IMG/VR virus record: IMGVR_UViG_3300021364_001752
Location: 16,456-80,455 of that record
DNA: 64,000 nt
Reading direction: 5' to 3' (one strand)
Source: a virus
Part shown: positions 7,955 through 12,430 of the stretch, one piece after another
How positions within the stretch are numbered: the first letter of the stretch is position 1
Layout: each line of letters starts with the position of its first letter
The notes under the pieces: generated by a model
Told to the model about the DNA's origin: nothing
Seen by the model: the letters and a program-made list of their open reading frames with translations, nothing else
Databases searched by the model: none
Translations under genes and position numbers: made by a program

Positions 7955-8265
7955 TTAGTAATTACTTGGATAACATAGCACATCGTGTGCAACGATTAAA
8001 TGATGCAAAAGAAACCACAGTCAAGTATCTGATTAAAGAAGAAGTAAAAGACAAAGACAAAATTGAAAATTGTGTGGTGATGAGTCAAATTTGGGCTGCG
8101 CATCAATTGGGTGAGCGCATGACAATGACAGACTTGAATATTGCTTTAGGTGGTCATGAAGATGTGATTGACCATCGAGAGCTATCACTTGATCCCGAAT
8201 ATGAAGATTATACCCTAATCGAAATGCTAGACGAGCTTTTACACAATGATGACAATAAGAATTAA
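7951..8265 (+). CDS. Hypothetical protein
   Basis: ORF in operon. Confidence 0.6.
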   Translation: MISNYLDNIAHRVQRLNDAKETTVKYLIKEEVKDKDKIENCVVMSQIWAAHQLGERMTMTDLNIALGGHEDVIDHRELSLDPEYEDYTLIEMLDELLHNDDNKN

Positions 8266-8491
8266 TAAATCAGAATTAAAAGTTTGCGAGAGCACTGCTA
8301 AAGTAGCAGTTTTAAATGCTACAGAAACTGATGTTAATGATATAGCAGAGTTGATCACCAGCAGGAACTATACTTGTGCTGTGATATATACCAAAGATCA
8401 AACAGCAGCACAAAAGTTATTTGAACAGGTAGGTGGCGAAACTACAAATTCTTACGACCGTCTGTATGCTTATGTAAGCAGTTTCACTTGA
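8246..8491 (+). CDS. Hypothetical protein
   Basis: ORF in operon. Confidence 0.55.
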   Translation: MMTIRINKSELKVCESTAKVAVLNATETDVNDIAELITSRNYTCAVIYTKDQTAAQKLFEQVGGETTNSYDRLYAYVSSFT

Positions 8492-8528
8492 TGTTAGCGC
8501 CAGCATTTTTAAAAAATGTAAATACAGT

Positions 8529-8750
8529 ATGTTGAGAAACGACCTTAAAGAATACTACAAAGTTTTCTACATGGTGAAAGGTCACCTCGACGCATCACCT
8601 CAGACAGTTATAGATAGTTACAACGGATACTTTCGTCGACTATGGATCGATGGAAGTAACGGCGCTCCTCTGTATGACTATGAAGAACAGTTCGAACAAG
8701 CATGGGAAGACATACAAAATGGTTTCAAAGAAAATACAAGAACTCAGTAA
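8529..8750 (+). CDS. Hypothetical late protein
   Basis: TAAATA-CAGT-ATG. Confidence 0.65.
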   Translation: MLRNDLKEYYKVFYMVKGHLDASPQTVIDSYNGYFRRLWIDGSNGAPLYDYEEQFEQAWEDIQNGFKENTRTQ

Positions 8751-8937
8751 CGACGACTTGTCGTATTTAGAAAAACTATTAGGCGAGCAATTTGCCAAAG
8801 AACTTGAAAGAGACAAAACCTGGGTCCAAAAAAATAACTATCATCGCCCAGGTGAAAAGAAAAGCAGAATACTTCGCCTTATGAATGCCATCCGTGCTCA
8901 ACAAGATATCAAAAAACGCACAGCAGAAAAGTGGTAA
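8719..8937 (+). CDS. Hypothetical basic protein
   Basis: MVSKKIQELS..; overlaps upstream gene. Confidence 0.55.
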   Translation: MVSKKIQELSNDDLSYLEKLLGEQFAKELERDKTWVQKNNYHRPGEKKSRILRLMNAIRAQQDIKKRTAEKW

Positions 8938-8963
8938 TGCATATCTGATATGCACCAAAAAGG

Positions 8964-8994
8964 TTGACCTCATTTACATAACATGTTATAAATA
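8964..8994 (+). promoter_or_regulatory. Overlapping sigma70-like and late promoter for tmRNA
   Basis: TTGACC-17-TATAAA, with TATAAATA at 8987-8994. Confidence 0.65.
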
Positions 8995-8998
8995 GCTT

Positions 8999-9380
8999 TG
9001 TTAGCGTTGAAGCAACGTGGACACATACTGGACCCGGGTGCGATTCCCGGCAGCTCCACCATAAGGACACTATAATGGCATTGATTTGGACAGGAATACA
9101 ATACACAAGTTTAGCCGCACTACTGGGAATGTGTGTGACGAAATGGGTTATTGATTTCCGTGCTTGGAGAGCAGGCAGACAAAAGCCAAAATGCTGCGGA
9201 TAGTGTTTTTATGATGGGGCTGATCAGGATCGACAGGTGTGAAAGTGAAGTGGAGTTAACCGGATGACTGCGTAATAAGTCAATCAAACTAGATGCAAAC
9301 GATAATTTTGCACCATCTGAGTTCGCTCTAGCAGCGTAACCACAGGGGGTATGGGCTCCACCTAGCAACAGAACGGGCCT
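8999..9380 (+). ncRNA. ssrA: Circularly permuted two-piece tmRNA (alphaproteobacterial type); tag ANDNFAPSEFALAA
   Basis: Acceptor piece ends GACCCGGGTGCGATTCCCGGCAGCTCCACCA (to 9061); coding piece starts GGGGCTGATCAGGATCGAC (9216); G3.U70 pair; tag ORF 9295-9339; outer ends approximate. Confidence 0.95.
9075..9203 (+). CDS. Putative 42-aa membrane peptide inside the tmRNA intervening segment
   Basis: AAGGA-N7-ATG; MALIWTGIQYTSLAALLGMCVTKWVIDFRAWRAGRQKPKCCG*. Confidence 0.5.
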   Translation: MALIWTGIQYTSLAALLGMCVTKWVIDFRAWRAGRQKPKCCG

Positions 9381-9425
9381 CCAAGATGAAACATAGGTTA
9401 TAGCACATCTGAAAGGAAACCCAAA

Positions 9426-10553
9426 ATGTTTAAAACAATCGCCGCATCGATGATGCGGTTTTCAGCGTTAGCAGCGTTGGCATTGACTATTCTCACTCCA
9501 TCACAAGCAGCAGCAGAAACCAAAGTAGGTTTTGTTTACGTAGGTCCAGTTGGCGACCTTGGTTGGACATACCGCCATGACATTGGACGTCAAGCTGTAG
9601 AACAAGCATACGGTGATGAAGTTTCTACTACCTACCTAGAAAACGTGCCAGAAGGTCCTGAAGCAGTTGAAGCAATTACTCAACTTGCAGAAGCTGGACA
9701 CGATATTATCTTTACGACCTCTTTTGGATTCATGGATGCAACCAACGAAGTTGCTTCTAGATATCCAGACATTGCATTTGAACATGCAACTGGTTATATT
9801 CGCGAAACTGAAAACATGGCTACCTTTGGAGCACGTTTTTATGAAGGGCGTGTTGTAGAAGGCATGCTTGCAGCGGAAATGACCAAAACCAACAAGATTG
9901 GTTACATCGCATCATTCCCTATTCCAGAAGTGGTGCGCGGTATCAACGCATTTATGTTGGAAGCACAAAAGCACAATCCAGATGTTGAAGTTGACATTGT
10001 TTGGGTTTACACCTGGTTCAACCCAGCAGTTGAAGCATCAGCAGCACAGGCATTGATTGATGAAGGTGCTGATATCATTGTGCAGCATACAGACTCGCCA
10101 GCGCCATTAAGTATTGCAGAAAAAGCTGGTGTATACGGATTCGGACAAGCGTCAAACATGAGCCGCTTTGGTCCTAGTGCGCATCTTGTGAGTATTGTAG
10201 ATGATTGGGATAGTTACTATGTTGACCGTGTAGGTGAAGTTATCAACGGCACCTGGGAAGGCGGAGACACCTGGTGGGGTCTTACCAAAGACGGTCAAGG
10301 TGGCGAAAAGGGTATGGTAGCCCTTGAGAGCTACAATGTCGAAGTGCTTGGACAGGATCTAGTCGATCGTGCCATTGCACTTGAAGAGTCACTTGCTAAT
10401 GGTGAGCGTCACGCATTTCCATGTGAAGGATTGTTTATGCAAGACGGTTCGGTTCCAGAGGACTGTGCAAATGGCGAAGAGCATCTTACAGATGGAACTT
10501 TGCTTGGTATGAATTGGTATGTAAAAGGAATTGACGCATCCCTTCCAAACTAA
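9426..10553 (+). CDS. BMP-family (purine nucleoside) ABC substrate-binding protein
   Basis: Signal peptide; KVGFVYVGPVGDLGWTY.HD.GR, FTTSFG, GADIIVQHTDS. Confidence 0.92.
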   Translation: MFKTIAASMMRFSALAALALTILTPSQAAAETKVGFVYVGPVGDLGWTYRHDIGRQAVEQAYGDEVSTTYLENVPEGPEAVEAITQLAEAGHDIIFTTSFGFMDATNEVASRYPDIAFEHATGYIRETENMATFGARFYEGRVVEGMLAAEMTKTNKIGYIASFPIPEVVRGINAFMLEAQKHNPDVEVDIVWVYTWFNPAVEASAAQALIDEGADIIVQHTDSPAPLSIAEKAGVYGFGQASNMSRFGPSAHLVSIVDDWDSYYVDRVGEVINGTWEGGDTWWGLTKDGQGGEKGMVALESYNVEVLGQDLVDRAIALEESLANGERHAFPCEGLFMQDGSVPEDCANGEEHLTDGTLLGMNWYVKGIDASLPN

Positions 10554-11993: not shown

Positions 11994-12197
11994 ATGAGTG
12001 ATACTGTAAGAGCAGCAGCACAAAAGCAAGCCGAAGAAGCAATGGATGGATTTATCCTATGGAGCAAACGAGTCACACTGTGGAGCGCATTCTTTTTATG
12101 TGTTGTTGTATTTGCTTGTAACTCAGGCGTAGACGGCAGTGGCAGTGGTTATAACGGAGAACAATATTCTCCTAGCAACTTGAATGTTAAAAAATGA
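11994..12197 (+). CDS. aa3-type cytochrome c oxidase subunit IV-like single-TM peptide
   Basis: EAMDGFILWSKRVTLWSAFFLCVVVFACNS resembles the Paracoccus CtaH pattern (GFI-TM-NS); TTGACA-17-TATATA upstream. Confidence 0.5.
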   Translation: MSDTVRAAAQKQAEEAMDGFILWSKRVTLWSAFFLCVVVFACNSGVDGSGSGYNGEQYSPSNLNVKK

Positions 12198-12430
12198 AGT
12201 GGTTAATCGTATTTGCAATGTTGGAAGCAGATCCATTTGCAATAAAAAGTTTACAATTTGACACACAAAACGAATGCAAAGCATATATCAATGATCCTGC
12301 TAACAGCAGCAGACTTGCAATAGAAGTGATTGATGTGGCAGGATTTAACGATACAATATTAAATGTGGCTTGTATGCCCGCAAACAAAATTACGAGGGAG
12401 ATGTTGAATGAAACCGAACAAGAAGTTTGA
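12194..12430 (+). CDS. Small secreted protein with a Cys pair (F.T..EC...VAC)
   Basis: Hydrophobic N-terminus; similar layout to 49235-49429. Confidence 0.6.
   Translation: MKWLIVFAMLEADPFAIKSLQFDTQNECKAYINDPANSSRLAIEVIDVAGFNDTILNVACMPANKITREMLNETEQEV

Follow-up and report, generated by a model that had tools for sequence, protein, structure and literature searches.

The tmRNA locus and its spacer

The window is a stretch of 64,000 nt from an 80-kb virus record in IMG/VR, which is a contig from an uncultured marine T4-like phage. In composition, tRNA cluster, and gene content, it resembles Melnitz and the pelagimyophage group (T4-like marine phages). As an earlier note on this DNA had proposed, the window contains a permuted tmRNA gene: ARAGORN places it at 8968-9430 with the tag ANDNFAPSEFALAA, and two Rfam models match it with scores above their cut-offs (RF04321, 108.4 bits with a cut-off of 47; RF01849, 97.9 bits with a cut-off of 50). 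The gene belongs to the two-piece alpha type, as its acceptor piece, which carries the T-arm and CCA, precedes the coding piece. The alanine identity element G3.U70 is present (GGGGCUG paired with CAGCUCC), and the tag ends in LAA, followed by a stop codon.

Passages in PMC9004378 (citing Keiler et al. 2000) and in PMC11915505 describe circularly permuted two-piece tmRNA genes from Alphaproteobacteria and aquatic phages. The gene in the window shares with the alpha two-piece tmRNAs the order of acceptor piece, CCA, spacer, and coding piece; a single precursor that is predicted to give rise to two base-paired RNAs; G3.U70; and the LAA tag. An Rfam search found no intron in the window, and the intervening segment is not a group I intron or a homing-endonuclease insertion. 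We did not find SmpB (PF01668) in the 80-kb record, but as this record is itself a genome fragment, that result says nothing about the phage as a whole. The features of the locus are:

8964-8994, + strand: promoter of the tmRNA unit, as read from the sequence (TTGACC at 8964-8969, a 17-nt spacer, and TGn-TATAAA at 8984-8992)
8987-8994, + strand: T4-late-type motif TATAAATA, overlapping the sigma-70-type TGn-TATAAA
9000-9061, + strand: acceptor piece from the RF04321 alignment (T-arm, 3' acceptor strand CAGCUCC, discriminator A, and CCA at 9059-9061)
9062-9215, + strand: intervening segment of 154 nt that is not in the mature tmRNA; a stem-closed hairpin with a gene in its loop
9062-9073, + strand: 5' arm of the closing helix, within which lies the Shine-Dalgarno sequence AAGGA (9063-9067)
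9075-9203, + strand: 42-codon gene, with its ATG at 9075 and its stop codon TAG at 9201-9203
9200-9212, + strand: 3' arm of the closing helix, overlapping the TAG; the conserved GAU is next, before G1 of the coding piece
9216-9382, + strand: tmRNA coding piece, with the 5' acceptor strand GGGGCUG; the RNase P site is expected at 9215/9216
9295-9339, + strand: tag frame, ANDNFAPSEFALAA plus stop

The earlier note had given the CCA end as 9061, followed by a 154-nt spacer up to GGGGCTG at 9216, with AAGGA, an ATG at 9075, and a TAG ending at 9203 in between, and all of these match the sequence.

TTGAC and TGTTATAA are both conserved among the relatives that we aligned, and the promoter region falls within the Rfam alpha_tmRNA model. 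The promoter was not listed by a simple promoter scan because the last base of its -10 hexamer is A. Most relatives (L062, L065, L066, and L070) have kept the TATAAATA motif; L064 has TATAATAT there. The overlap of sigma-70-type and T4-late-type elements suggests that the tmRNA unit may be transcribed both early and late.

The tmRNA is followed by a gene for a BMP-family ABC-transporter substrate-binding lipoprotein (9426-10553), which has its own Shine-Dalgarno sequence (AAAGGAA), and we saw no terminator between the two. Using this lipoprotein as a synteny anchor gave nine viral loci listed, at 51-53% identity, of which none had an adjacent tmRNA. The relative L070 does not have the BMP-gene insertion between its tmRNA and its homologue of the window gene 12194-12430.

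The two ends of the intervening segment pair, as the earlier note had recognized. The arms ATAAGGACACTAT (9061-9073) and ATAGTGTTTTTAT (9200-9212) form 12-13 base pairs, including two G.U pairs, with an energy of -13 kcal/mol, and both the Shine-Dalgarno sequence and the stop codon are within this stem. The closing helix is present in the minimum free energy fold of the spacer (-48.2 kcal/mol, z = -3.9) and in that of the whole precursor, in which it is predicted to stack on the acceptor stem. Both G's of AAGGA form G.U pairs with a run of U's in the 3' arm.

Across 79 unique viral spacers, positions +2 to +10 pair with positions -6 to -14 in 74-77 spacers (versus 35-71 if the partners are shuffled), and several pair types covary, so the covariation that the earlier note had proposed looking for is present. 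The helix was found in phage spacers with and without an ORF, which implies that the pairing predates the gene. The Shine-Dalgarno sequence is placed in one of two ways. In the first type, it is grafted in the 5' arm as UAAGGA or AAAGGAG, with its G's opposite U's (in L064 and L070, the grafted sequence faces a leftover G rather than a U). In the second type, it lies immediately past the stem. Among the spacers compared, GG at +4/+5 is restricted to those that bear an ORF. These patterns indicate that the Shine-Dalgarno sequence was grafted onto a conserved tmRNA helix by A/C-to-G changes, which would have been tolerated as G.U pairs.

The 42-codon gene in two contexts

The predicted peptide (MALIWTG...KPKCCG) has 42 amino acids, and its Shine-Dalgarno sequence is at the proper spacing before the start codon (AAGGA-N7-ATG). 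A hydrophobic N-terminal helix (approximately residues 2-26) is followed by a basic tail, RAWRAGRQKPKCCG, of charge +5 and ending in two cysteines (KCCG). The earlier note had described a peptide with one transmembrane helix and a basic CCG tail. The length and the tail are as described; a transmembrane helix is plausible, but the best 19-residue Kyte-Doolittle mean (1.46) is borderline. The peptide has no match in Pfam, and its best match in PHROG has E = 0.003. In the ESM Atlas, the best score was 0.81, which is below lead level, and a tblastn search of 50,697 GenBank phage records with the peptide found none. The ORF thus matches no endonuclease family, and the searches pointed to no other family, fold, or partner. 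A word-indexed protein search plus phmmer over 1.8 billion representatives found only P0001, a 90%-identical protein from an ENA assembly, which is the same gene. The gene call for P0001 runs in from the acceptor piece, and its in-frame upstream residues (SSTINTLGDIA) suggest a leader that is 10 nt longer, with the Shine-Dalgarno sequence after the stem.

We gathered copies of the ORF with amino-acid-degenerate DNA patterns, which gave six IMG/VR contigs and eight JGI metagenome contigs among the matches listed. Including the window, there are at least 15 copies with 11 distinct nucleotide sequences, and 15 of 15 are intact. The C-terminal KCCG is invariant across the copies. Among the 11 distinct sequences, the numbers of variable sites at codon positions 1, 2, and 3 are 5, 0, and 19, and the Nei-Gojobori dN/dS is 0-0.19, with dS of up to 0.88. 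The earlier note had asked for an alignment of related spacers to check ORF conservation and dN/dS, and on both counts the ORF passes. The codon-position pattern and the low dN/dS argue that the ORF is translated, and they mark it as a genuine gene under strong purifying selection.

The length of the ORF by itself is within chance: when we made 2000 dinucleotide shuffles from the spacer, 6.5% of them had an ORF of at least 42 amino acids. The spacer also folds better than its shuffles do (z = -3.9). Both observations would fit a spacer that is conserved as a structured RNA and whose reading frame is accidental. However, of the 24 variable sites, 19 fall at third codon positions and none at second positions, and the frame is preserved in a different RNA context (described below), so this alternative is effectively refuted.

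The gene occurs in two contexts. In the window and in L064, L066, L067, L070, L071, L072, and L073, it lies in the spacer, and the tmRNAs concerned span at least four lineages that differ in their T-arms, acceptor stems, and tags. In L062/L063, L065, and L069/L074, it lies downstream of a tmRNA whose own spacer is short or ORF-less (29, 92, or 72 nt). The downstream copies have the same 13-nt leader (with AAGGA) and the ORF, starting 1-2 nt past the 3' end of the coding piece. In both contexts, then, only 1-2 nt separate the cassette from the mature tmRNA 3' end before it, and the homology between contexts runs from the AAGGA leader to the stop codon. All 15 copies listed adjoin a tmRNA. For L070 (spacer) and L065 (downstream), the ORFs differ by one synonymous change and the acceptor pieces and promoters are 97% identical, with the order of ORF and coding piece swapped. 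The same sequence, a terminator-like hairpin, follows the ORF in L062 and the coding piece in L070.

Because the cassette is also kept outside the spacer, adjoining the tmRNA, what is conserved appears to be co-transcription with the tmRNA, together with a start right behind a mature tmRNA 3' end, and not excision. The earlier note's claim of a coding ORF in the excised segment of a tmRNA is therefore right about the gene, which is under selection, but the excised location is not essential, as L062/L063, L065, and L069/L074 show. When we folded the copies in the downstream context, we found no conserved equivalent of a helix that sequesters the Shine-Dalgarno sequence. Since the closing helix is general to phage tmRNA spacers and is absent from the downstream copies, the stem was not built as a device for the 42-codon gene.

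Between lineages, the nucleotide identity is 87-99% for the ORF, 69-88% for the acceptor piece, and 58-81% for the coding piece. For the window versus L062, dS is 0.16 while the coding pieces are 63% identical. That dS is far below the tmRNA divergence in some pairs implies that the cassette and the tmRNA pieces have recombined. Might the cassette be a selfish or neutral passenger, that is, a mobile insert that is tolerated by the spacer loop with no benefit to the phage, comparable to the S23p-ORF intervening sequence in Coxiella 23S rRNA? The mosaic distribution would agree with this, as would the higher identity of the ORF than of the flanking tmRNA pieces between lineages and the lack of the ORF in the closest tmRNA relatives (L008 and L010). 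Nevertheless, we consider it quite improbable. With dN/dS below 0.1 and no second-position change in 11 sequences, it is the protein that is selected. Also, no mobility gene or repeat flanks the cassette, and it was retained after moving out of the spacer.

Spacers of viral and cellular tmRNA genes

With a single pattern that recognizes the 5' end of the alpha-type coding piece, we searched IMG/VR and a set with one genome per prokaryotic species. Since the patterns were fixed words and the counts are among the matches listed, the frequencies are rough. This census gave 110 viral permuted tmRNAs from IMG/VR and 101 cellular alphaproteobacterial ones, among the matches listed. The cellular spacers have a median length near 29 nt, and 3 of 101 reach 95 nt (among the matches listed); none of the 101 alphaproteobacterial genes listed has an ORF in its spacer. 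This is where the gene in the window, with its protein-coding spacer of 154 nt, differs from the cellular alpha two-piece tmRNAs. The lengths of the viral spacers lie between 9 and 499 nt, and among the 110 viral tmRNAs listed, 38 unique spacers are at least 95 nt long.

The ORF coverage of these 38 long spacers is bimodal: in 14, one ORF takes up at least 80% of the spacer, and the rest are clearly non-coding. Each of the 14 spacer-filling ORFs is matched by at most 2% of shuffles. If we count ORFs that run on into the coding piece, then 35 of the 48 unique spacers of at least 90 nt bear an ORF and 13 have none. In 25 of these 35, the ORF ends inside the spacer; in the other ten, it ends beyond, including six that end at a conserved UAG at +13. 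Counted from the end of the spacer, the stop codons are concentrated at -12, -7, -1, and +13, showing that conserved tmRNA letters are reused as stops.

The encoded proteins, or cargos, have 27 to 120 amino acids. About one-third have a clear hydrophobic helix, and the others are soluble or very basic. We tested the five cargo families with at least two members, and four have dN/dS of 0.1-0.35 for most pairs. The fifth (L132/L140) has a saturated dS, which leaves no ratio to compute. A 63-aa spacer cargo (L100:8744-8932, + strand) belongs to Pfam family DUF6356, with a score above the cut-off (E = 4e-11). A 67-aa gene (L083:2115-2315, - strand) fills a tmRNA spacer of 210 nt and is homologous to a free-standing gene in the window (8529-8750; 30% identity, E = 2e-7, with a shared MVKGH motif) that sits about 250 nt upstream of the tmRNA promoter. 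This homology implies that ordinary phage genes can enter the slot. Judging from these sequences, the spacer of the alpha-type phage tmRNA is a protein-coding slot with exchangeable small genes as its cargo. The many unrelated cargos, both membrane and soluble, point to a general expression slot and not to a peptide-specific tie to trans-translation.

Among cultured phages, the Methylophilales phage Melnitz-1 (L316; MZ577095.1, 44732-45184) has an annotated SsrA with a 142-nt spacer and GGAG-N6-ATG. The ORF has about 54 codons; it spans the whole closing stem and then 42 nt of the coding piece. As it continues past the RNase P site, cleavage would leave its message without a stop codon. Locus tags _86 and _87 are missing from the Melnitz record (MZ577095.1).

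Some other observations from the census are of interest. One cargo family (L126, L165, L087, and L086; 43-47 aa) has the pattern WISW..PFQWG..FR..NG.PYK.YR.GPLLIRVF. Its stop codon is inside the spacer in L086 and is the conserved UAG 13 nt into the coding piece in L126, L165, and L087, and the codons for the last residues of the proteins lie in the closing stem and the acceptor strand. The Sinorhizobium phage Phosso (L317; PV764938.1, at about 349.2-350.2 kb) has an unannotated alpha-type permuted tmRNA that was missed by ARAGORN; its spacer of 410 nt has no spacer-filling ORF. On the viral contig L014, two different permuted tmRNA genes are in tandem (8159-8493 and 9090-9481), with the tags ANDNFASEDYALAA and ANENFALAA. 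Alpha-type tmRNA 5' ends were also found in L204, L246, L264, and L267, which are from metagenome-assembled genome (MAG) bins of Planctomycetota, Subdoligranulum, Gemmatimonadaceae, and Sulfotelmatobacter. These hits are probably due to misbinning or to phage DNA.

The diversity of the cargos bears on two other readings of the locus. The earlier note had favored the first, in which processing of the pre-tmRNA (maturation of the CCA 3' end and RNase P cleavage at G1) frees a stable, stem-closed mini-mRNA and thereby couples a membrane peptide to trans-translation. We think that this is unlikely. The start of the cassette 1-2 nt past the mature tmRNA 3' end in both contexts and the adjoining tmRNA in 15 of the 15 copies listed are in its favor, and the paired ends of the spacer could protect a freed RNA. 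But in a freed spacer, the Shine-Dalgarno sequence would be locked in the helix, and the downstream copies lack both an RNase P site past the stop codon and a helix that pairs with the Shine-Dalgarno sequence. Furthermore, the slot holds unrelated cargos, including soluble and very basic proteins, and some cargo ORFs reach a stop codon on the unprocessed precursor only.

The second is a toxin or lysis-timing peptide that is gated as in hok, with the pairing of the ends blocking translation until the RNA is processed or refolds. In favor of this, the peptide is a small one in which a charged tail follows a hydrophobic helix; its Shine-Dalgarno sequence pairs with the region of the stop codon; and about one-third of the cargo proteins look membrane-embedded. 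However, the helix is a tmRNA feature that exists without any ORF, and the same gene is kept downstream of the tmRNA without a helix that hides its Shine-Dalgarno sequence. We found no sigma-70-like promoter on the minus strand in 9062-9215. Also, the extreme conservation of polar and cysteine residues suggests that the peptide has a specific partner and does not simply damage membranes. All told, a gated toxin seems very unlikely.

The pre-tmRNA as a probable messenger

We consider it likely that the stem-closed loop of the tmRNA spacer is a slot for a small protein gene and that the pre-tmRNA doubles as the messenger. For the window, we infer that the pre-tmRNA also serves as the mRNA for the 42-aa peptide. 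In this scheme, the pre-tmRNA would be made from a strong early-plus-late promoter, and ribosomes would load on the Shine-Dalgarno sequence before the 3' arm has been transcribed or during its transient opening. Translation would come first, and the closing helix and the acceptor stem would form afterwards. RNase P would then cut at 9215/9216, which is 12 nt past the stop codon, the CCA end would be matured at 9061, and the spacer would be discarded or released. With 12 nt between the stop codon and the RNase P site, a ribosome that terminates there would abut the acceptor strand. The cargo ORFs that stop only at +13 or run on further would, at least, have to be read from the unprocessed precursor. 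A point against the scheme is that the Shine-Dalgarno sequence lies inside a helix of -13 kcal/mol, which should hinder initiation once the helix has formed.

A more specific version is possible, although we would not bet on it. In this version, the pre-tmRNA would, in a large group of aquatic T4-like phages, be translated once or a few times during its synthesis, and closure of the helix and the acceptor stem would be an irreversible switch from messenger to RNase P substrate. The output of the cargo would be metered by tmRNA synthesis, stop-less messages from cleaved cargo would be resolved by the phage's own tmRNA, and the KCCG peptide would act at the host membrane both early and late. As to the peptide itself, our best guess, and no more than a guess, is a role at the host inner membrane or close to it.

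Several known systems resemble this arrangement in part. The nearest analogue is an intervening sequence of the 23S rRNA that carries an S23p ORF; such sequences are also present in Leptospira. Like the spacer in the window, these are stem-closed, are excised from the precursor of a stable RNA without religation, have an ORF in the loop, and have a patchy, cassette-like distribution. They differ in that the host is helix 45 of the rRNA, RNase III is involved, and the protein is from another family, whereas the window peptide has no Pfam match and is strongly selected. In the parts of PMC4990558 that deal with the intervening sequence of Coxiella burnetii 23S rRNA, the results suggest that its S23p is not synthesized. 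A member of this class would lie in helix 25 or 45 of the 23S rRNA and carry an S23p-family protein; as the host RNA here is a tmRNA and the peptide has no Pfam match, the spacer in the window is an analogue of the class and not a member of it.

Some tmRNA genes have an intron form, with group I introns, some of which carry homing-endonuclease genes (PMC11915505). There too, a protein gene lies within a segment that is removed from the tmRNA precursor. However, those introns are self-splicing and are located in the T-loop, and the ORF drives the mobility of the intron, while the window has no intron and no endonuclease and the two pieces are not rejoined. In tRNA-punctuated transcripts and tRNA-mRNA co-transcripts, such as those of the mitochondrial punctuation model and the E. 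coli tRNA-tufB operon, the ends of a messenger are likewise set by tRNA-processing enzymes that act on neighboring tRNA-like structures, as they would be here. In the window, by contrast, a single tRNA-like domain flanks the messenger, with one half on each side, and translation of the messenger and folding of the RNA would compete within one molecule. Dual-function RNAs and the mRNAs of type I toxins (SgrS/SgrT, RNAIII/hld, and hok) also combine an RNA gene with a small peptide, and hok likewise hides its ribosome-binding site by pairing of its 5' and 3' ends. The window differs from these in that the peptide is encoded in the discarded part of the RNA, the pairing predates the gene, and no antisense RNA is evident.

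A full-text literature search found no published description of protein genes in tmRNA spacers. In its passages on spacers, the 2025 tmRNA database reports a tRNA-Ala and a repetitive element as the sole spacer contents and no protein genes (PMC11915505). The paper on the Melnitz phage describes its two-piece tmRNA, with a glutamine riboswitch in the 3' part, and does not mention a gene in the spacer. A 2014 survey of tmRNA lists phages with ssrA and does not mention spacers or spacer ORFs.

Because tmRNA spacers are regarded as disposable and annotation pipelines mask everything under a tmRNA call, a class of small phage proteins has been invisible; for the 42-aa peptide, there was one gene call among the 1.8 billion representative proteins. 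If the precursor is both a messenger and the precursor of a stable RNA, then translation and RNase P would compete on one molecule, which would be a simple device for timing or dosing. The slot also shows that phage genomes take up new small genes and move them about, as seen in several independent cargo families and in order swaps between near-identical relatives. It is a natural insertion site for engineering phage tmRNA operons. Because Melnitz is cultured and has an ORF-bearing spacer, the question is experimentally tractable.

We also compared 8900-9500 to four metatranscriptome runs. The matching contigs are mostly the mature pieces of relatives and could include DNA. Only one contig, of 181 nt and low depth (9016-9189), covers the spacer, and it may derive from precursor RNA or from DNA. 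As contigs do not reveal where transcripts start or end, these matches speak neither for nor against expression. One salt-marsh metatranscriptome (X19) has a contig of 58 nt that corresponds to exactly 9004-9061, with five differences and no overhang. This is the size expected for the mature acceptor piece of a relative and is a weak hint of processing into two RNAs.
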